DNA from: Cyanobacteria bacterium P01_F01_bin.150
GTDB lineage: Bacteria > Cyanobacteriota > Cyanobacteriia > CAKZMO01
Reading direction: 5' to 3'
Length of the DNA stretch: 64,000 nt
NCBI GenBank assembly: GCA_039189765.1
Contig: JBCCYL010000004.1
Location: forward strand, 17,348-81,347
The position numbers were made by a program, and so were the translations under genes. Of this stretch, positions 3,885-11,435 are shown one piece after another. Position 1 is the stretch's first letter. Every line of letters starts with the position of its first letter. The notes beneath the pieces were generated by a model. The model saw nothing but the letters and a program-made list of their open reading frames with translations, did no database searches and was not told where the DNA came from.

Positions 3885-4355
3885 ATGTTTTCTCTATTTT
3901 CCTTGAACCCACTCAATGCAATCGGCTCTGCCATCCATATGGCAGATGTTCGTCGCTGGAGTCAAACTCCAGCAGCGATCGCATTGACGATGGGTTGGAC
4001 CGGAGATAGAGAAATTTGTGCATTTGGCTCTTTGCAATTCTATGGGTTGGGCCAAAGCATATTAGGTCAGAGTATGGCGTCTAGATTGTTCAGCCCAGTC
4101 GCCCAAGAGTGTCATAGATTTAGCCGGAACATTCAGGCAATTATTGATTCAAGCATCATCGCAAATGGATTCAATATTCAACCATCCATCGTTCAGAGTA
4201 GTGAACATCAGGACGAGGAAGAACTAGGCAACAAGAGCCTAGGTTTAGACTACGAATATCTGGGCAATCCAGAATTCAAATCGAATCCAAACGTGGATTC
4301 ATACTCCAGACAACTAATGAGCGGGAGGCATAGGTTTATGCCTGTACCAGGATAA
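3885..4355 (+). CDS. Hypothetical protein
   Basis: 156-aa ORF followed by strong rho-independent terminator; no recognisable motifs. Confidence 0.35.
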   Translation: MFSLFSLNPLNAIGSAIHMADVRRWSQTPAAIALTMGWTGDREICAFGSLQFYGLGQSILGQSMASRLFSPVAQECHRFSRNIQAIIDSSIIANGFNIQPSIVQSSEHQDEEELGNKSLGLDYEYLGNPEFKSNPNVDSYSRQLMSGRHRFMPVPG

Positions 4356-4382
4356 GGCAACATAACAGATTGCTCTGTTGCA

Positions 4383-4423
4383 CCCCCCGCTTCTGTCTTA
4401 AGGAGCGGGGGGTATTGTTTTAT
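4383..4423 (+). terminator. Rho-independent terminator (stem ccccccgc/gcgggggg followed by tattgttttat)
   Basis: GC-rich 8-bp stem plus T-rich tail directly after stop of 3885..4355. Confidence 0.6.
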
Positions 4424-4513
4424 AAATTGCTTTTGGAAGTCAGGTTTTAGTTGTCTTGTCGGGGCTATCCGACGATTATTTGACCGGCCGCAGAACTTTG
4501 GAGGAAATCCACC

Positions 4514-5077
4514 ATGCAATCATCCATATCGTCTCTCAAGCCATTATCATCCCAGCCAGTTCCTGCTATTTTGCAGAAAAAGGTCGTGGTTTTTTCCTGC
4601 ACCTATCTGCCCGTGGCACGAATCAACATTAAACGGGCGATCGCCCTGCTCCTGACTGGTCGAGCCGAATCCCTTGATATGGGCAACGGCAAAGGGTGGA
4701 ACGTACGGTCTCCAAATTTCGTCCTCCATGTGCCGGAATATATTCGTCTAACCACCAGCGATCCAAAACGGAAATGGAAGGTCCCCCCAGTGAACCGACG
4801 GGAAGTGTTAAGGCGAGATGCCCACACCTGCCAATACTGCGGCAGTAAGCGAAAGCTCACCCTTGACCACGTCCTTCCCCGATCTCGGGGTGGTACCCAT
4901 ACCTGGGATAACGTTGTCACTGCTTGTGAGCCGTGTAACTCGTTCAAAAGCGATCGCACCCCCAAGGAAGCGGGCATGGTGCTGAAGACAAAAGCGAAAG
5001 CTCCCATTCACCCAGCGATCGCCTTTGCTGAGGAATTCTGGAAACACCAAGACCAGAGTGCCTTATTTGAAACTTAA
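4514..5077 (+). CDS. HNH endonuclease family protein
   Basis: CQYCGSKRKLTLDHVLPRSRGG...WDNVVTACEPCNSFKSDR: HNH motif with Cys4 zinc site. Confidence 0.8.
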   Translation: MQSSISSLKPLSSQPVPAILQKKVVVFSCTYLPVARINIKRAIALLLTGRAESLDMGNGKGWNVRSPNFVLHVPEYIRLTTSDPKRKWKVPPVNRREVLRRDAHTCQYCGSKRKLTLDHVLPRSRGGTHTWDNVVTACEPCNSFKSDRTPKEAGMVLKTKAKAPIHPAIAFAEEFWKHQDQSALFET

Positions 5078-6330: not shown

Positions 6331-6408
6331 GGGGATGTAGCTCAGCCGGTTTAGAGCACCTGTCTGTCGAACAGGACGTCGCGGGTTCGAATCCCGTCAT
6401 CCTCGCCA
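6331..6408 (+). tRNA. tRNA-Asp (anticodon GTC), CCA encoded
   Basis: acceptor ggggatg/catcctc, G73, loop ctGTCga, T-loop ttcgaat. Confidence 0.75.
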
Positions 6409-6469
6409 TTTATGTCCCATAGAAACGTCTGAGATGATGGCATTGCCGTTATCTCAGGCGAATACTTAT

Positions 6470-6543
6470 AGTCTCGTGGACGAATAGATAAGTCGCTTTG
6501 GTTCTCAGCCAGAGAGAAGCGGGTGCAACTCCCGTCGGGACTT
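6470..6543 (+). tRNA. Degenerate tRNA-like gene (anticodon-loop CTC, Glu-type; non-canonical T-loop tgcaact)
   Basis: acceptor agtctcg/cgggact pairs, D-arm resembles the Gln(CUG) copies; T-loop lacks TTC. Confidence 0.3.
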
Positions 6544-6546
6544 TAA

Positions 6547-6621
6547 GTCCAGGTAGCCAAGTGGAAAGGCGTTGGTCTGCAAAACTAAAAATCATGGGTT
6601 CGATTCCCATCCTGGACTCCA
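6547..6621 (+). tRNA. tRNA-Cys (GCA), CCA encoded
   Basis: acceptor gtccagg/cctggac, U73, loop ctGCAaa. Confidence 0.7.
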
Positions 6622-6683
6622 AATTTTCAACTCTCAGATCCCAGGGTTCTCAAAGAACCCTGGGATCTCAAACCACAATCTGA

Positions 6684-6758
6684 CGGAGTGTAGCTCAACG
6701 GTAGAGCACTAGGCTCATAACCTAGCACGTGCGGGTTCGACTCCCGCCACTCCCACCA
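6684..6758 (+). tRNA. tRNA-Met (CAT) (elongator/initiator/Ile2 type undetermined), CCA encoded
   Basis: tagctcaacggtagagc D-arm, loop ctCATaa, T-arm gcgggttcgactcccgc. Confidence 0.7.
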
Positions 6759-6805
6759 ACTGTGATGACATACGAAGTCTGTACTCATATGTTTGCAGTT
6801 TGTTT

Positions 6806-6879
6806 GGGCGGGTAGCTCAACTGGCTAGAGCAGCGGTCTCCAAAACCGCAGGTTGCAGGTTCGACCCCTGTCCCGCTCG
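6806..6879 (+). tRNA. tRNA-Trp (CCA)
   Basis: acceptor gggcggg/cccgctc (G-U), G73, loop ctCCAaa. Confidence 0.7.
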
Positions 6880-6954
6880 TGAGACACAGCAAGTCTCTCC
6901 CTTAAGACAGTGGTGGATGTCCTCCACATCCACCGCTTTACTTCTCAAAACCTT

Positions 6955-7032
6955 GGTGCCGTAGGCAAATTTGGTAAAGCCACATGACTTTCAATCATGT
7001 GTTTGCGGGTTCGAGTCCCGTCGGCACTTCCA
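6955..7032 (+). tRNA. tRNA-Glu (TTC), CCA encoded
   Basis: acceptor ggtgccg/cggcact, anticodon arm catga-ctTTCaa-tcatg. Confidence 0.6.
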
Positions 7033-7076
7033 GTTTTTCACCCCCTCTAACTCCCCCTTGGCAAGGGGGAGGACCT

Positions 7077-7159
7077 GGGTCGGCCCGCCTATTGGAGTGA
7101 GGCAACGGTCTGTAAAGCCGCCGCGTAACGCGTTGCAGGTTCAACCCCTGCCCGACCCA
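7077..7159 (+). tRNA. tRNA-Tyr (GTA), class II with long variable arm
   Basis: acceptor gggtcgg/ccgaccc, A73, loop ctGTAaa, variable stem cgcg-taa-cgcg. Confidence 0.65.
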
Positions 7160-7249
7160 TAGCCCCGCGATCGCCACAGGATCCCCGGCTTTTCTCTCTC
7201 AATCCGGGGATCTACCGCTCAAGCGATATTTCGATTATTTCAACGACCT

Positions 7250-7340
7250 GGAGAGGTCGCCATTGGCAAAGCAAGCTGCCTGCTAAGCAGTCGTGGGTCT
7301 AAACGGTCCACTGTGGGTTCGACTCCCACCCTCTCCGCCA
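7250..7340 (+). tRNA. tRNA-Ser (GCT), class II, CCA encoded
   Basis: acceptor ggagagg/cctctcc, G73, loop ctGCTaa, long variable arm. Confidence 0.7.
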
Positions 7341-7385
7341 GAATCTTAGTTTTTTGGGGCGATCGCATAAGCAGTCCAATAGTCT

Positions 7386-7462
7386 GAGGGCGTGGTGTAA
7401 ATGGATAACACGCCAGGTTGCGAACCTGGAGAGTAGGGGTTCAAGTCCCTTCGTCCTCGCCA
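7386..7462 (+). tRNA. tRNA with anticodon GCG (Arg, unusual G34), CCA encoded
   Basis: acceptor gagggcg/cgtcctc, arm ccagg-ttGCGaa-cctgg. Confidence 0.5.
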
Positions 7463-7491
7463 AATACATAACATTTCTGTAAGTCATTCAT

Positions 7492-7576
7492 GGAGGTTGT
7501 CCGGCATGGACGAGGAAAGCGTCTTGAAAACGCCTGCGGCTACAAACCGTCAAGGGTTCGATTCCCTTAGCCTCCG
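7492..7576 (+). tRNA. tRNA-Ser (TGA), class II
   Basis: acceptor ggaggtt/agcctcc, G73, loop ctTGAaa, long variable arm. Confidence 0.6.
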
Positions 7577-7625
7577 CTTTTCCCATGTAGGGTGGGCATC
7601 GCCCACCACCACCATATCCAAATCT

Positions 7626-7697
7626 GGGGACGTAGCTGAGATGGATTAGCGTCAGGTTGAAGCCCTGAAGAGGTAGGTTCAATACCTACCGTTCCCA
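7626..7697 (+). tRNA. tRNA-Phe (GAA)
   Basis: acceptor ggggacg/cgttccc, A73, arm tcagg-ttGAAgc-cctga. Confidence 0.7.
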
Positions 7698-7759
7698 TCC
7701 TCTGTATTGGTTAAGCATTATTGCTTAAGAACAGAGGGTTAACCAATACGGAGCATTAA

Positions 7760-7835
7760 TGCCTCATAGCTCAACTGGCAGAGCGAGCGGCTGTTAACCG
7801 CGAGGTTGTAGGTTCGAGTCCTACTGGGGCAGCCA
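7760..7835 (+). tRNA. tRNA-Asn (GTT), CCA encoded
   Basis: acceptor tgcctca/tggggca, G73, loop ctGTTaa. Confidence 0.7.
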
Positions 7836-7927
7836 ATTTTACCCCCTCAATCCTAATCCGATTCCCTCCCCTTGCTTTTGGCATTAGCCTGCCCGGAGGG
7901 CATAGGGGAAGGCCAGGGTGGGGTCAT

Positions 7928-8003
7928 TGCCGAGTGGACGAATTAGCAAGTCGCCTGACTCTGAATCAGGAGGTTGTAGGTGCGAATCCTACCTCGGCAT
8001 CCA
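7928..8003 (+). tRNA. tRNA-Gln (CTG) copy 1, CCA encoded
   Basis: acceptor tgccgag/ctcggca, arm cctga-ctCTGaa-tcagg. Confidence 0.6.
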
Positions 8004-8016
8004 ACAATTAAGTTAA

Positions 8017-8089
8017 TCCCCTGTGGTGTAACTGGTAACACGTCCGATTTTGGCTCGGAAGAGTCTAGGTTCGAGACCTAGCGGGGGAG
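8017..8089 (+). tRNA. tRNA-Gln (TTG)
   Basis: acceptor tcccctg/cggggga, G73, arm tccga-ttTTGgc-tcgga. Confidence 0.55.
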
Positions 8090-8137
8090 TTGGGGAAATT
8101 TGATTATGCCTGGGTCAATCACGTTTCTCCTTTTCAT

Positions 8138-8215
8138 GCTCCTGTAGCCCAACTGGCAGAGGCGGCTGTCTTAGAAGCAGTCCATGTGTGGGTTCAAATC
8201 CCACCAGGAGTACCA
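8138..8215 (+). tRNA. Class-I Leu-like tRNA, anticodon TAG, A73, CCA encoded (paralog family member 1)
   Basis: acceptor gctcctg/caggagt, arm gctgt-ctTAGaa-gcagt, short variable arm, T-arm gtgggttcaaatcccac. Confidence 0.6.
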
Positions 8216-8268
8216 AATTTGCGTCCGGGTCCCTCCCTTTAGCAAGGAGAGGGCTAGGATGAGGTCAT

Positions 8269-8344
8269 TGCCGAGTGGACGAATTAGCAAGTCGCCTGAC
8301 TCTGAATCAGGAGGTTGTAGGTGCAAATCCTACCTCGGCATCCA
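8269..8344 (+). tRNA. tRNA-Gln (CTG) copy 2 (near-identical duplicate of 7928..8003), CCA encoded
   Basis: same sequence as copy 1 except T-loop tgcaaat; upstream gtcat flank also duplicated. Confidence 0.6.
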
Positions 8345-8404
8345 AACATTTCCTGAGGTTATCCGATCACTTTGCGCTCAGATCTCCTCCAAAAAAGATT
8401 TCAT

Positions 8405-8475
8405 TGCCTTCTGGTGTAATGGCAGCATCTTGCACTTTGAATGCGATGGTCCAGGTTCAAGTCCTGGGAGGGCAG
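8405..8475 (+). tRNA. tRNA-like gene with anticodon TTG (Gln-type), short D-arm
   Basis: acceptor tgccttc/gagggca, arm ttgca-ctTTGaa-tgcga, T-arm ccaggttcaagtcctgg. Confidence 0.45.
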
Positions 8476-8533
8476 TCGGGGGGAGCAGGATATAGCCTGG
8501 GTCAAATTTATCCTTAACCTCCTGTTTTTTCAT

Positions 8534-8611
8534 ACTCCTGTAGCCCAATTGGCAGAGGCGGCTGTCTCAGAAGCAGTCCACGTGTGGGTTCAAATCCCAC
8601 CAGGAGTACCA
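8534..8611 (+). tRNA. Class-I Leu-like tRNA, anticodon CAG, A73, CCA encoded (family member 2)
   Basis: acceptor actcctg/caggagt perfect; loop ctCAGaa; same backbone as 8138. Confidence 0.6.
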
Positions 8612-8620
8612 ATTTTTTAA

Positions 8621-8698
8621 GCTCCTGTAGCCCAACTGGTAGAGGCAACTGTCTTAAAAACAGTTCATGTGTGGGTTCGAATCCCATCAGGAGTACCA
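8621..8698 (+). tRNA. Class-I Leu-like tRNA, anticodon TAA, A73, CCA encoded (family member 3)
   Basis: anticodon stem actgt/acagt carries compensatory changes relative to gctgt/gcagt; loop ctTAAaa; no group I intron in loop. Confidence 0.6.
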
Positions 8699-8703
8699 TC
8701 TAT

Positions 8704-8778
<75 letters not shown>

Positions 8779-8782
8779 CTTT

Positions 8783-8860
8783 GCTCCTGTAGCCCAATTG
8801 GCAGAGGCGGCTGTCTCAAAAACAGTCTATGTGTGGGTTCAAATCCCACCAGGAGTACCA
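8783..8860 (+). tRNA. Class-I Leu-like tRNA, anticodon CAA, A73, CCA encoded (family member 4)
   Basis: same backbone; loop ctCAAaa. Confidence 0.6.
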
Positions 8861-8864
8861 GCAC

Positions 8865-8940
8865 ACTCCCGTGGCGGAACGGCAGACGCACCAGACCGAG
8901 GATCTGGGTTTTGTGGGTTCGAATCCCACCGGGAGTACCA
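8865..8940 (+). tRNA. Class-I Leu-like tRNA, anticodon GAG (C33), A73, CCA encoded (family member 5; different D-arm)
   Basis: acceptor actcccg/cgggagt, arm ccaga-ccGAGga-tctgg, T-arm gtgggttcgaatcccac; starts 4 nt after previous tRNA. Confidence 0.5.
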
Positions 8941-8942
8941 AT

Positions 8943-9018
8943 GGGTCGCTAGCTCAATTGGCAGAGCATCCGGCTTTTAACCGGAGGGTTCAGGGTTCGA
9001 TGCCCTGGCGACCCACCA
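8943..9018 (+). tRNA. tRNA-Lys (TTT), CCA encoded
   Basis: acceptor gggtcgc/gcgaccc, A73, arm tccgg-ctTTTaa-ccgga. Confidence 0.75.
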
Positions 9019-9036
9019 AATCGATTTTAGATTGAT

Positions 9037-9116
9037 GATTTTAGATTTTGGATTAGCACGTTCGTGCAACCTCCCAACGGGAATCACCCATCTTCCAAAA
9101 TCCAAAATCTAAAATC
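9037..9116. repeat. Long inverted repeat: 18-bp arms gattttagattttggatt / aatccaaaatctaaaatc around a 44-nt loop containing mini-hairpin gcacgttcgtgc
   Basis: Perfect reverse-complement arms seen in sequence, inside the tRNA array between tRNA-Lys genes. Confidence 0.7.
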
Positions 9117-9128
9117 CAAAATTCAATC

Positions 9129-9200
9129 GGGCTGTTAGCTAAGTGGTAAAGCAGCCGCCTCTTAAGCGGAAGAGCATGGGTTCAACTCCCATACAGCCCA
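9129..9200 (+). tRNA. tRNA-Lys (CTT)
   Basis: acceptor gggctgt/acagccc, A73, loop ctCTTaa (4-bp anticodon stem + mismatch). Confidence 0.55.
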
Positions 9201-9201
9201 T

Positions 9202-9280
9202 TGCGGGGATGGAGCAACAGTTTGGCTCGACGGTCTCATAAGCCGTAAATCGGTGAGTGCAATTCTCACCCCCGCGTCCA
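9202..9280 (+). tRNA. Second tRNA with anticodon CAT (Met/initiator-like/Ile2 undetermined), CCA encoded
   Basis: gcggggatggagca 5' end resembles initiator tRNA, arm acggt-ctCATaa-gccgt, non-canonical T-loop tgcaatt. Confidence 0.5.
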
Positions 9281-9283
9281 ACT

Positions 9284-9357
9284 GCGAATGTGATGTAACG
9301 GTAGCATGTGAGGCTTCCAACCTCTTCGTGCAGGTTCAAATCCTGTCATTCGCTCCA
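9284..9357 (+). tRNA. tRNA-Gly (TCC), CCA encoded
   Basis: acceptor gcgaatg/cattcgc, U73, loop ctTCCaa. Confidence 0.65.
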
Positions 9358-9361
9358 AATT

Positions 9362-9436
<75 letters not shown>

Positions 9437-9438
9437 GC

Positions 9439-9510
9439 GCGGATGTGGTGTAAGTGGAAACATCAAAGACTGCCAAGCTTTAGTTGCGAGTTCGACCCTC
9501 GTCATCCGCT
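9439..9510 (+). tRNA. tRNA-Gly (GCC)
   Basis: acceptor gcggatg/catccgc, U73, loop ctGCCaa. Confidence 0.6.
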
Positions 9511-9606
9511 TTGTTAGCTTTAGAAGCTAGTATCCTAGCCAAGACGCCAGATGCAATGCAAATTCCGCCTTCTGCCTTTTGCTTTCTACCCTCTGCCTTG
9601 CTTCAA

Positions 9607-9707
9607 AGTCCCGTAGCTCAACGGTGGAGCACTTGTCTTACAAACAAGGGGTTGTGGGTATTCCCTATCGGGAACGCTTGCGCGAACAAATCCCACCGGG
9701 ACCACCA
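9607..9707 (+). tRNA. tRNA-Val (TAC) carrying a 27-nt insertion in the T-loop (approx 9660..9686), CCA encoded
   Basis: acceptor agtcccg/cgggacc (A1-C72 mismatch), arm cttgt-ctTACaa-acaag, T-stem gtggg/cccac separated by 33 nt instead of 7. Confidence 0.5.
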
Positions 9708-9710
9708 TTT

Positions 9711-9787
9711 GGGAGTGTAGCTCAATGGACTAGAGCACCGATCTTCTAAATCGGCTGTTGTAGGTTCGAATCCTACCACTCCTGCCA
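9711..9787 (+). tRNA. tRNA-Arg (TCT), CCA encoded
   Basis: acceptor gggagtg/cactcct, arm ccgat-ctTCTaa-atcgg, canonical T-arm. Confidence 0.7.
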
Positions 9788-9813
9788 TCTCGCACAAAAC
9801 ATATAGCCAACAT

Positions 9814-9886
9814 GGGCCTGTAGCTTAACTGGGAAAGCGTCTGTCTTGCAAACAGAAAGATGTCGGTTCGATTCCGACCAGTGTCC
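9814..9886 (+). tRNA. Degenerate Ala-like tRNA (TGC) with two acceptor-stem mismatches, probable pseudogene
   Basis: arm tctgt-ctTGCaa-acaga and T-arm gtcggttcgattccgac fine, but acceptor gggcctg vs cagtgtc does not pair fully. Confidence 0.35.
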
Positions 9887-9946
9887 ACTTGCCGGAGGGG
9901 CGATCGCACCCCACCCAATCGCCCTCTGGCTCTTCATCATACTTGT

Positions 9947-10045
9947 GGGAGTGTCGCCTAATGGATTGGGCACCAGTCTTCGAAACTGGTCTGTGTGGGT
10001 AACTCCTAACGGAGACGCTTGCGCGAACGATTCCTACCACTCCTG
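9947..10045 (+). tRNA. tRNA with anticodon TCG (Arg) carrying the same 27-nt T-loop insertion (approx 10001..10027); same acceptor as Arg(TCT)
   Basis: acceptor gggagtg/cactcct, arm ccagt-ctTCGaa-actgg, T-stem gtggg/cctac separated by 33 nt. Confidence 0.5.
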
Positions 10046-10053
10046 TCAAATTC

Positions 10054-10125
10054 GGGACCATAGCTCAACTGGAAGAGCACCTGCCTTGCAAGCGGGAGGT
10101 AGGGGTTCGATTCCCCTTGGCTCCA
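10054..10125 (+). tRNA. tRNA-Ala (TGC) with G3-U70
   Basis: acceptor gggacca/tggctcc (G3-U70, one A-C mismatch), A73, arm cctgc-ctTGCaa-gcggg. Confidence 0.65.
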
Positions 10126-10127
10126 CT

Positions 10128-10203
10128 GTGACGGAAACCGAAGTGTTCGAGGTGCTGGTCTGTGAAACCAGTTTTAGCGAGTTAGAGTCTCGTCCGTCAC
10201 CCC
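10128..10203 (+). tRNA. Degenerate His-like tRNA (GTG) with G-1/C73 but no canonical D- or T-loop; probable pseudogene
   Basis: 8-bp acceptor g-tgacgga/tccgtca-c, arm ctggt-ctGTGaa-accag, D-region cgaa-gtg-ttcg lacks GG, T-loop ttagagt. Confidence 0.35.
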
Positions 10204-10223
10204 AAGTTCTCTCACTCCATATA

Positions 10224-10338
10224 TGGAAGGTGCCGCCAATGGTTGGCAATCGGTCTCGAAATCCGAGGGATAGCATCGCTATCGGGGTTTCTCCTATCAG
10301 AGACGCTTACGCGAACAATTCCTCCACCTTCCGCTCCA
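10224..10338 (+). tRNA. tRNA-Ser (CGA), class II, carrying the 27-nt T-loop insertion (approx 10289..10315)
   Basis: acceptor (t)ggaaggt/accttcc, G73, loop ctCGAaa, long variable arm, then insertion ttctcctatcagagacgcttacgcgaa. Confidence 0.45.
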
Positions 10339-10345
10339 AAAACAT

Positions 10346-10423
10346 GTTGGCCGAATCCAAAGTGGACGCGGAACTGGTTTGTGACACCAGTTGTAGCGGG
10401 TTCAAGTCCCGTCGGTCAACCCA
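10346..10423 (+). tRNA. tRNA-His (GTG) with encoded G-1 and C73, CCA encoded
   Basis: g-ttggccg/cggtcaa-c, D-loop aaagtggacgc, arm ctggt-ttGTGac-accag, T-arm gcgggttcaagtcccgt. Confidence 0.7.
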
Positions 10424-10427
10424 TTTC

Positions 10428-10542
10428 TGGAAGGTGCCGCTAATGGTTGGCAATCGGTTTGGAACACCGAGGGATGGCATGCTGCTATCGAGGTTTCTCC
10501 TATCGGAGACGCTGACGCGAACGATTCCTCCTCCTTCCGCCA
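10428..10542 (+). tRNA. tRNA-Ser (GGA), class II, carrying the 27-nt T-loop insertion (approx 10495..10521), CCA encoded
   Basis: perfect anticodon stem tcggt-ttGGAac-accga, G73, insertion ttctcctatcggagacgctgacgcgaa; paralog of 10224..10338. Confidence 0.5.
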
Positions 10543-10846
10543 GTATTAATTGCATTACCAACATTCTTCCAAAACTATGAATACCTCAGCCCCAGGCACG
10601 AAGCAAGACAATGCCACTCGACTAAACCAACCGATGTTTAGCAAGCAAGCTGCCCGAAATTATAGAGTGCTATTGCCAGCACTACCTCGATATTTTGGTC
10701 GTCTTCTTCAAAATGATGATCCCATTAACCCAGTTTCTGAAAAAGACTATTACATGGTTCGTCGATTCATGTAATACCCGTACATTGGCTAGCTTTGTTT
10801 AGCGATCGCCCCATCATAAATAAAGCTAGTCATTCATCCACCAGAG

Positions 10847-10923
10847 GCCGAAAAGCGAGGCACCGTGCTGATAACGCGGCGATAGCAGGGGCAGTACCTG
10901 CCTGGTGGACTTTGGAGATTTGG
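10847..10923 (+). promoter_or_regulatory. Candidate structured leader: 8-bp stem ccaccagg/cctggtgg enclosing about 60 nt, upstream of NADAR gene
   Basis: Inverted repeat seen in sequence; no riboswitch class recognised. Confidence 0.2.
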
Positions 10924-10982: not shown

Positions 10983-11435
10983 ATGACCATTTACTTTTAT
11001 AGCAACCGTGAAAAGCCCTATGGATGCTTTTCAAACTTTTCAAGTCATGGATTTGAATTAGATGGTCAGTGGTGGCCAACAAGTGAGCACTATTTTCAAG
11101 CCCAGAAGTTTATTGAAACGGCACCGTATTGGGCCAAGAAAATCCAAGAGGCTAAAGCTCCTAAAATTGCTGCCACGATGGGGCGCGATCGCCGCTACCC
11201 TCTCCGCACTGATTGGGAAGACGTAAAGGACGACATTATGAGTAATGCCGTTCTTCAAAAATTCACTACCCATGAGGATATTCGCTCCATCCTCTTATCC
11301 ACCAGAGATAAGCACATAGTCGAAAATGCGCCCGGAGACTACTACTGGGGCTGTGGTAAAGACGGCAGCGGCAAAAACAAGCTGGGCCAGATTTTAGTGG
11401 CCGTTCGTGCCCAGCTTAGAGAACAATCACCGTAA
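10983..11435 (+). CDS. NADAR / YbiA (DUF1768) family protein
   Basis: YGCFSNFSSHGFELDGQWWPTSEHYFQAQKF matches the YbiA/NADAR N-glycosidase signature. Confidence 0.7.
   Translation: MTIYFYSNREKPYGCFSNFSSHGFELDGQWWPTSEHYFQAQKFIETAPYWAKKIQEAKAPKIAATMGRDRRYPLRTDWEDVKDDIMSNAVLQKFTTHEDIRSILLSTRDKHIVENAPGDYYWGCGKDGSGKNKLGQILVAVRAQLREQSP

Follow-up and report, generated by a model that had tools for sequence, protein, structure and literature searches.

L-arrays are accessory tRNA gene arrays that are normally silent and are induced under translational stress; an HNH endonuclease gene has been reported upstream of them, in cyanobacteria rtcB is linked to and co-regulated with them, and the array of Nostoc/Anabaena PCC 7120 is the only one that has been studied experimentally (PMC8421152). 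Here, we analyzed a stretch of 64,000 nucleotides (nt), called the window throughout, from the cyanobacterial assembly P01_F01_bin.150 (GCA_039189765.1, contig JBCCYL010000004.1, positions 17,348 to 81,347). Its tRNA gene array resembles the L-arrays in gene order, upstream HNH gene and sequence. It shares the gene order of the PCC 7120 trn operon, exceeds the 20 densely packed tRNA genes by which such arrays are recognised, and is related to the L-array on the delta plasmid of PCC 7120. The PCC 7120 array has no T-loop insert, whereas four tRNA genes of the window array carry an insert of 26-27 nt in the T-loop. Interrupted T-loops are mentioned neither in PMC8421152 nor in the survey of Tran et al. 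2016. We consider it probable that the four inserts are copies of a very small dispersed cyanobacterial repeat family, moved at the DNA level into T-loops.

The window inserts best match the class of small dispersed repeats (SDRs) known as SDR1-8 from Nostoc punctiforme and its relatives. Both are alike in size (21-27 nt for SDRs, units of 23-27 nt here), lack coding capacity, occur in many dispersed copies and contain a hairpin with compensatory changes. The SDRs that Elhai described in 2008 are reportedly also nested within one another's copies, embedded in heptamer tandem repeats and associated with HIP1. In contrast to SDRs, the present element occupies a fixed T-loop position in dozens of accessory-array tRNA genes and is found well beyond Nostocaceae. 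Passages in papers that cite Elhai 2008 confirm that the SDR class exists, that SDR5 has 21 nt and that it inserts precisely into HIP1, and according to such a passage SDR-like repeats are not found outside Nostocaceae. Full-text literature searches, whose coverage did not extend to the founding SDR paper, returned neither the element sequence nor a report of a T-loop interruption of this kind. The class of the element appears to be already known, and its recurrent, position-exact occupation of T-loops appears to be unreported.

The interrupted genes encode tRNA-Val(TAC), tRNA-Arg(TCG), tRNA-Ser(CGA) and tRNA-Ser(GGA) (Table 1), each of which exists in the window array only as an interrupted gene. 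The original prediction, made from the bare sequence, had placed the T-stem halves of all four genes 33 nt apart, and the four sites were confirmed as it describes them. The Rfam tRNA model aligned end to end with Val-TAC (9607-9704, 49.2 bits) and Arg-TCG (9947-10045, 37.4 bits), with 32 nt in place of six T-loop positions in either gene. ARAGORN called none of the four genes on the unaltered sequence. After excision it called Val(tac) and Arg(tcg) with many different cuts, Ser(gga) solely with the 26-nt cut that falls between TT and CGATT, and Ser-CGA not at all. For Ser-CGA, Rfam gave only a weak match to the tRNA-Sec model (23.7 bits), and inspection by eye revealed two mismatches, T-T within the anticodon stem and C-A within the first hairpin of the insert; as read from its sequence, this gene is decaying. 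In both Ser genes, the 26-nt cut gives back canonical loops, TTCAATT and TTCGATT, and the encoded CCA is correctly placed in two of the four interrupted genes. An alternative cloverleaf that would accommodate the extra bases in the variable arm was sought and rejected, since Rfam locates them in the T-loop. The predicted minimum-energy fold of Ser-GGA is a cloverleaf with two additional mini-hairpins; the predicted folds of Val and Arg favour a competing helix that unpairs the T-stem.

The paralogous Arg-TCT gene, with an acceptor stem identical to that of Arg-TCG, has a normal T-loop and lacks the insert, as the original prediction had stated. The Arg-Ala block of the array is duplicated, and so is the His-Ser block, in which both Ser genes carry the element. 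Because the two Ser copies lie in one duplicated block, they were probably inherited from one event, and the four copies amount to about three insertion events.

Table 1. Coordinates of the array, the interrupted genes, the element copies and associated features in the window
Feature	Position	Strand	Evidence and details
HNH endonuclease gene, upstream of array	4514-5077	+	HNH domains in open reading frame
Long tRNA gene array	6331..10542	+	ARAGORN, Rfam, BLAST to cyanobacterial plasmid arrays
tRNA-Val(TAC), encoded CCA	9607..9707	+	T-stem 9654-9658 / 9692-9696; T-loop 9659-9691 (33 nt)
Element copy 1, ATTCCC-TATC-GGGAA-CGC-TTGC-GCG-AA	9660..9686	+	In Val-TAC; model 33.6 bits
tRNA-Arg(TCT)	9711..9787	+	Uninterrupted paralogue of Arg-TCG; T-loop TTCGAAT; ARAGORN and Rfam; also delimited as 9711-9784
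tRNA-Arg(TCG)	9947..10045	+	T-stem 9995-9999 / 10033-10037; T-loop 10000-10032
Element copy 2, AACTCC-TAAC-GGAG-A-CGC-TTGC-GCG-AA	10001..10027	+	In Arg-TCG; model 31.9 bits
Tandem His-Ser block duplication	10128..10545	+	Units 10128-10345 and 10347-10545, 74% identical, global alignment
tRNA-Ser(CGA)-like gene, partly degenerate	10225..10333	+	T-stem 10283-10287 / 10321-10325; read from sequence
Element copy 3, TCTCC-TATC-AGAGA-CGC-TTAC-GCG-AA	10290..10315	+	In Ser-CGA after T54, T55 (10288-10289); model 33.2 bits
tRNA-Ser(GGA), encoded CCA	10429..10542	+	T-stem 10489-10493 / 10527-10531
Element copy 4, TCTCC-TATC-GGAGA-CGC-TGAC-GCG-AA	10496..10521	+	In Ser-GGA; model 35.8 bits

The inserts of the four genes had been described as homologous blocks of about 27 nt that fold into two mini-hairpins with covarying stems. 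Each part of this description stands. The inserts share one motif, and each of them folds into the two mini-hairpins in isolation. In the wider family, a unit of about 23-27 nt begins with a first hairpin of 3-6 bp (TCTCC/GGAGA or CCC/GGG types), continues with a second hairpin of 3 bp (CGC-N-GCG) and ends in AAC or TAC. Comparison with Val-TAC genes that lack the insert, in Kovacikia, PCC 7120 and N. flagelliforme, placed copy 1 between T54 (9659) and C56 (9687), where it occupies the place of T55. The pattern CCTANCNGNNACGCTNNCGCGAAC has exactly four matches in the 64 kb, at 9664, 10005, 10293 and 10499, all on the + strand, while the chance expectation from dinucleotide shuffles is 0.01 and no shuffle reached four. 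An unfiltered search of the whole window with the covariance model of the element likewise placed the four sites alone at 32-36 bits, with the next best at 10.5 bits.

All five pairs of hairpin 1 show two-sided changes (69 cells), a score that was reached by none of 500 shuffles, and the shifted-register controls were far lower. Stem position 3 pairs T with A in 108 copies and C with G in 11, and the hairpin 1 stems of T-loop copies include TCTCC/GGAGA, CGCC/GGCG, TTCC/GGAA, CTCCC/GGGAG and GCGCC/GGCGC. Pairs were counted on a model-based alignment; MAFFT mis-registered the 5' half wherever loop lengths differed. Hairpin 2 differs among members of the wider family, the variants being CGC/GCG, GGC/GCC, GCC/GGC and a GCAAGC module. 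A subfamily confined to T-loops and marked by a 4-nt loop in hairpin 2, as present in all four window copies, was considered and dropped, the metagenomic T-loop copies being mostly of the 3-nt form. Searches of the inserts against Rfam at permissive thresholds returned only tRNA-type matches and no known RNA family.

Interrupted T-loops recur in related arrays. Among 15 arrays picked by BLAST similarity alone, seven contain T-loop inserts verified by ARAGORN after excision, and an eighth, that of Kovacikia, has one insert visible by eye. The array of Nostoc PCC 7524, on plasmid pNOS7524.01, carries a related insert in the orthologous Val-TAC gene and at least four further interrupted T-loops, among them those of Met, Glu-TTC, Tyr and Leu-CAA; its Val, Tyr, Glu-TTC and Leu-CAA genes occur in interrupted form only. 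One of its inserts is nested, tACCCT[ACCCTTCGGGAACGCTCCGCGAA]CGGGAAGCAAGCtac; by locus, nested copies are present in a Tyr gene (locus L001) and a His gene (L134). Metagenomes scanned for the T-loop form yielded 85 matches, with about 45 of 80 loci being tRNA arrays, and a general scanner recovered 92 distinct interrupted T-arms that cover 19 amino-acid specificities, with up to 10 in a single array. In 36 arrays, 76 insert-bearing genes (ARAGORN-recognised after excision) stand beside 674 normal ones, about one in ten, a fraction that is inflated because most of these arrays, the metagenomic ones, were selected for having at least one insert. The sense-strand copies all lie at one position, after T54/N55 and before C56. 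T-loop inserts range from 18 to 59 nt, the composite ones from 48 to 59 nt, and they are more alike within an array (edit distance 6.6) than between arrays (8.0; 0 of 2000 permutations).

More copies of the element lie outside tRNA genes than within them. A search without tRNA context of one genome per species detected the element, in the form (T/A)TCTCC-loop-GGAGA-CGC-N-GCG-AAC, at no fewer than 120 loci, almost all of them cyanobacterial and belonging to several orders. Among the matches listed are Nostocales, Leptolyngbya, Oscillatoria, Chamaesiphon, Pleurocapsa, Spirulina and Trichodesmium, and among these same matches only one copy is in a tRNA gene. The remainder includes copies inside AAAACTC heptamer arrays (L036, L073, L098, L107), a copy adjoining the HIP1 sequence GCGATCGC (L079), copies nested in the hairpin loop of another copy in the form cccT[...]Cggg (L112, L123, L124, L093, L044) and further copies in intergenic DNA. 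The element is also present in 42 plasmid records, mostly of Nostocales and mostly in unannotated stretches, and five non-tRNA copies are in IMG/VR contigs. Of the three readings first offered for the inserts, namely a mini-intron or processing element, an extra functional arm, and a tiny mobile element that targets T-loops, the mobile element comes closest; its specificity for T-loops does not hold, since most copies are outside tRNA genes, and neither does the notion of a new class.

One non-tRNA site is recurrent. The arrangement ...gcagacgggT[TTTCTCC...GCGAA]CGACTccgctcaaccctca bears the element in eight metagenome contigs (L149, L150, L164, L199, L202, L206, L214, L215); these contigs have no tRNA in the vicinity, and the site matches no Rfam family at the gathering threshold.

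The insertion site was defined by comparing filled and empty forms of the same gene. In the clearest pair, the filled Val gene of PCC 7524 reads GCGGG-T[ACCCTTCGGGAACGCTTGCGCGAA]CAATT-CCTGC and the empty Val gene of N. flagelliforme reads GCGGG-TTCAATC-CCTGC, the rest being nearly identical, so that T-T-C becomes T-[24 nt]-C. The window Val-TAC is nearest to the empty Val gene of Kovacikia, and tRNA-Leu(TAG) occurs in filled and empty forms in two separate lineages. The presence of both forms in separate lineages of Val-TAC and Leu-TAG indicates repeated gain, or precise loss. Read in the orientation of the element itself, T(T) precedes it and C follows it, usually in a hairpin loop. This also applies to antisense copies: the anticodon loop of a Phe-GAA gene (L055) holds one, beside the complement of GAA, and removal of 24 nt restores tRNA-Phe(GAA); others lie in T-loops where TTCGAA is palindromic (L167, L169, L174) and in the variable region of Arg-ACG (L001). 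The target therefore works on either strand whatever the direction of transcription, which points to insertion at the DNA level. Furthermore, the T-arm, with its GC-rich stem and TTC, is like hairpin 1 of the element (ccc-TTC-ggg), which would explain both the nesting and the T-loop matches.

A Gly-GCC gene (L186, - strand, within 6700-6900) contains a T-loop insert together with a reverse-oriented second copy in the anticodon stem-loop, showing that a single tRNA gene can be struck more than once.

The antisense copies bear on an explanation without transposition, in which the insert has a single origin in one array tRNA and owes its spread solely to gene conversion or recombination among the near-identical T-arms of neighbouring genes. 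The greater likeness of inserts within arrays, the block duplication that accounts for the two Ser copies and the confinement of the window copies to T-loops are all in its favour. However, it leaves unexplained the hundreds of copies outside tRNA genes, in heptamer repeats and within other copies, as well as the antisense copies in anticodon and variable loops, and we regard it as extremely improbable.

The same comparisons bear on the possibility that the block is a mini-intron, cut from the array transcript by an endonuclease, with RtcB joining the halves to a working tRNA. The linkage and co-regulation of rtcB with L-arrays (PMC8421152), the intact cloverleaves, the lack of any uninterrupted counterpart for the four window genes and for the four named genes of PCC 7524, and the restoration of canonical loops by the 26-nt cut in both Ser genes would fit such a scheme. 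For the majority of copies, which begin with A after T54, however, no cut yields a loop that starts with TTC; the closest 7-nt result is TACRANT, with A at position 55. Antisense copies in tRNA genes are predicted neither by an RNA-level intron nor by a purpose-built arm, and the element lies mostly outside genes altogether. An RtcB gene was not found among the ten open reading frames (ORFs) nearest the array, to which the scan was limited. Non-canonical archaeal tRNA introns, which can lie in the T-loop, are likewise short blocks outside the anticodon loop, but the host here is bacterial and the sequence is dispersed and also antisense. An intron of the archaeal bulge-helix-bulge type was rejected, the predicted folds being the T-stem plus two hairpins or the competing helix, with no 4-bp helix flanked by 3-nt bulges. 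A group I intron was rejected as well: the block comprises 26-27 nt in the T-loop and is far below the self-splicing core of about 200 nt or more, which lies in the anticodon loop, and it has no Rfam match to such an intron. We therefore give the mini-intron very little credence.

We return to the reading that we prefer, a dispersed repeat inserted into T-loop DNA, against which several observations weigh. Most copies read T-A...A-C, so that the exact junction is ambiguous and T55 seems to be replaced rather than kept. Among mismatches in hairpin 1, G-T and A-C are about equally frequent (7 versus 9, from a model-fitted alignment that mis-registers CCC-type stems); without a strand bias of wobble-type mismatches, the hairpins could matter as DNA or as RNA. 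Non-tRNA copies show only a modest enrichment of flank complementarity with a stem of at least 4 bp (34% versus 24%), and we therefore abandoned hairpin-loop flanks as a universal target and treat this context as a preference rather than a rule. The covariance model detected no copy in the 64-kb window outside the four T-loops, which makes arrival with the array or purely local spread plausible, and the window does not show genome-wide dispersal of the element in the source organism itself. The reading also lacks a named mobilising factor: the ten ORFs scanned beside the array contain no Y1/RAYT transposase, and no wider search for one was made. Finally, the assignment to the SDR class of Elhai is tentative.

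The condition of the interrupted tRNAs weighs in the same direction. Most interrupted genes retain full cloverleaves, and filled Leu-TAG orthologues display compensatory T-stem changes by eye in the alignment. Orthologue identity is 0.816 for insert-bearing and 0.842 for insert-free genes and is lower for the former in 28 of 42 array pairs, a comparison that is biased because only ARAGORN-recognised genes enter it and the array pairs are not independent. With so small a gap, 2.6 percentage points, tolerated or functional inserts fit as well as recent ones.

These data would also fit a selected extra arm that is retained in the mature tRNA and alters elbow recognition, for example by allowing escape from T-loop-cleaving toxins or elbow-binding factors under translational stress. 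Such an arm would be consistent with a position that is constant in about 100 tRNA genes of 19 specificities, with the strong covariation of hairpin 1 within T-loops, with the paired stems of filled orthologues and their low excess divergence, and with the T-loop remnant after the insert, which reads R-A-N-T/C in the T-loop copies recovered by an unconstrained model search. On the other hand, the element is a dispersed repeat elsewhere, close relatives alternate between filled and empty alleles, and nested and composite inserts look like accumulation, not design. Moreover, the competing helix predicted for Val and Arg, the decay of Ser-CGA and the fact that the experimentally studied PCC 7120 array works without an insert all speak against selection for an arm, which we consider improbable.

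The tRNA gene bodies being largely intact, the insertions are either recent or tolerated. In our view the insertions, many of which would be recent, are most likely tolerated because they lie in redundant genes, and we regard retained function or removal of the block from the RNA as a minority possibility. That the interrupted genes give rise to working tRNAs, either because the elbow can accommodate a two-hairpin module of 23-27 nt between positions 55 and 56 or because the module is excised and the ends are religated (e.g., by RtcB), seems possible to us but doubtful. A precedent for a tolerated insertion may be found in the STRR sequences that Vioque reportedly described in 1997 in the RNase P RNA gene of heterocystous cyanobacteria. 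They too are a cyanobacterial repeat in a loop of a structured RNA, although they consist of tandem heptamers in helix P12, whereas the present unit has two hairpins and sits at the tRNA elbow.

T-arm DNA (GGG-TTCRANT-CCC) offers a target of just this kind, and the element lands after T54/T55 and before C56. We hypothesize that insertion takes place at the DNA level, perhaps while the hairpin DNA is transiently single-stranded, and that the factor responsible acts in trans; one candidate, as a guess, is a single-strand (HUH-type) transposase. Copies would build up in accessory, normally silent arrays because redundancy of the genes leaves little selection against insertion, and within an array block duplication, perhaps together with local copying, would multiply them further. 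Array transcripts would probably contain the block, which would turn the T-loop into a three-way junction. The block would be expected to impair or alter steps that depend on the elbow, for instance recognition by RNase P, addition of CCA and contacts with the ribosome.

Hairpin elements moved by single-strand (HUH/Y1) transposases, namely derivatives of IS200/IS605 and the REP/REPIN-RAYT systems (REPINs: PMC3116915), appear to resemble the element in having hairpins near the ends, a short fixed target without evident duplication, an orientation that follows the target strand and no coding capacity. The features of this type seen here are the two hairpins and a target between TT and C on either strand, with an ambiguous exact junction. 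The cyanobacterial element is much smaller than HUH-moved elements, and the resemblance is a lead only. A miniature inverted-repeat transposable element was rejected as a candidate: the ends of the element, (T/A)TCTCC.../...GCGAAC, are not inverted repeats, and the filled/empty comparison reveals no target duplication.

In the window, ARAGORN called 31 tRNAs in the array and left gaps at the four interrupted sites. With a His gene at 10128 and the four interrupted genes, the array comprises at least 36 tRNA genes in 4.2 kb. BLAST identified related arrays on cyanobacterial plasmids of Nostoc PCC 7524, PCC 7120 (delta plasmid), Calothrix, Tolypothrix and Kovacikia. The His(GTG)-like gene missed by ARAGORN is located at 10128-10201 (+; Rfam 44.9 bits), and a second missed gene, which is Tyr(GTA)-like and whose variable arm is long, lies in the gap 7033-7249 (partial Rfam match 7087-7151). 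The tRNA-Leu genes of the array have just 76-78 nt and thus lack the usual long variable arm. Long perfect hairpins occur in the inter-tRNA spacers 6409-6469, 6622-6683, 6881-6954 and 9019-9128 (for example gatcccagggttc...gaaccctgggatc), and in spacer 9019-9128 short tandem repeats of the AAAATCC/AAAATCT type flank a hairpin on both sides. An ORF of 244 codons with a TTG start (9846-10580, +) spans Ala, Arg, His and Ser tRNA genes and is almost certainly spurious. Downstream of the array, a NADAR-domain gene is present at 10983-11435 (+), and the sole contig on which its protein was found is 5.6 kb long and comes from a public sequencing run.

Directly 3' of the last tRNA of the array (10840-10912, +) is a conserved cloverleaf-like RNA of about 70 nt, with counterparts in L001 (4402-4475), L003 (~4243-4315), L004 (~4408-4480) and L005 (~4359-4430). 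An 8-bp stem closes the structure, which contains three hairpins; its D- and T-like loops are non-canonical, and the 7-nt loop of its middle hairpin, CUGAUAA, would present a GAU (Ile) anticodon. Compensatory changes occur at four pairs across five arrays. Neither ARAGORN nor Rfam called this RNA, and ARAGORN found no tRNA-Ile in the window array.

Other arrays contain a second, larger type of interruption, about 100-420 nt long and located around the anticodon region of tRNA genes (L001 2320-2740; L002 4233-4585 and 4673-5094; L004 2882-3236; also L182, L201 and L211). Its ends recur, ...CAGCTTTTT(C/T)NACTTAC... at one and AAAGCTTACATAC at the other, and together form a long imperfect hairpin; it may be another mobile element or an intron. 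In addition, L001 (1991-2062) and L133 (~2660-2780) contain tRNA genes whose anticodon, CTA, would pair with the amber stop codon, and the one in L133 bears a T-loop insert.

For genome annotation, our results mean that tRNA finders miss interrupted genes, and cyanobacterial arrays consequently show gaps or "pseudogenes" at genes that are complete and interrupted. Few parts of a tRNA are as invariant as the T-loop. About 100 natural, otherwise intact tRNA genes with an insert at one position constitute a ready-made test of how much the elbow tolerates, which can be carried out in a culturable strain, for instance Nostoc sp. PCC 7524, with known inducers of the array such as the chloramphenicol or tetracycline used for PCC 7120. 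If excision and religation proved true, the block would be the first T-loop intervening sequence in a bacterial tRNA. To our knowledge, the way in which cyanobacterial repeats of about 25 nt move has been an open question since they were first described. A target shared by both strands, together with the likeness between the T-arm and hairpin 1, narrows the possible mechanisms of movement, and the "TTC in a hairpin loop" target may offer the first experimental handle on the movement of such elements.

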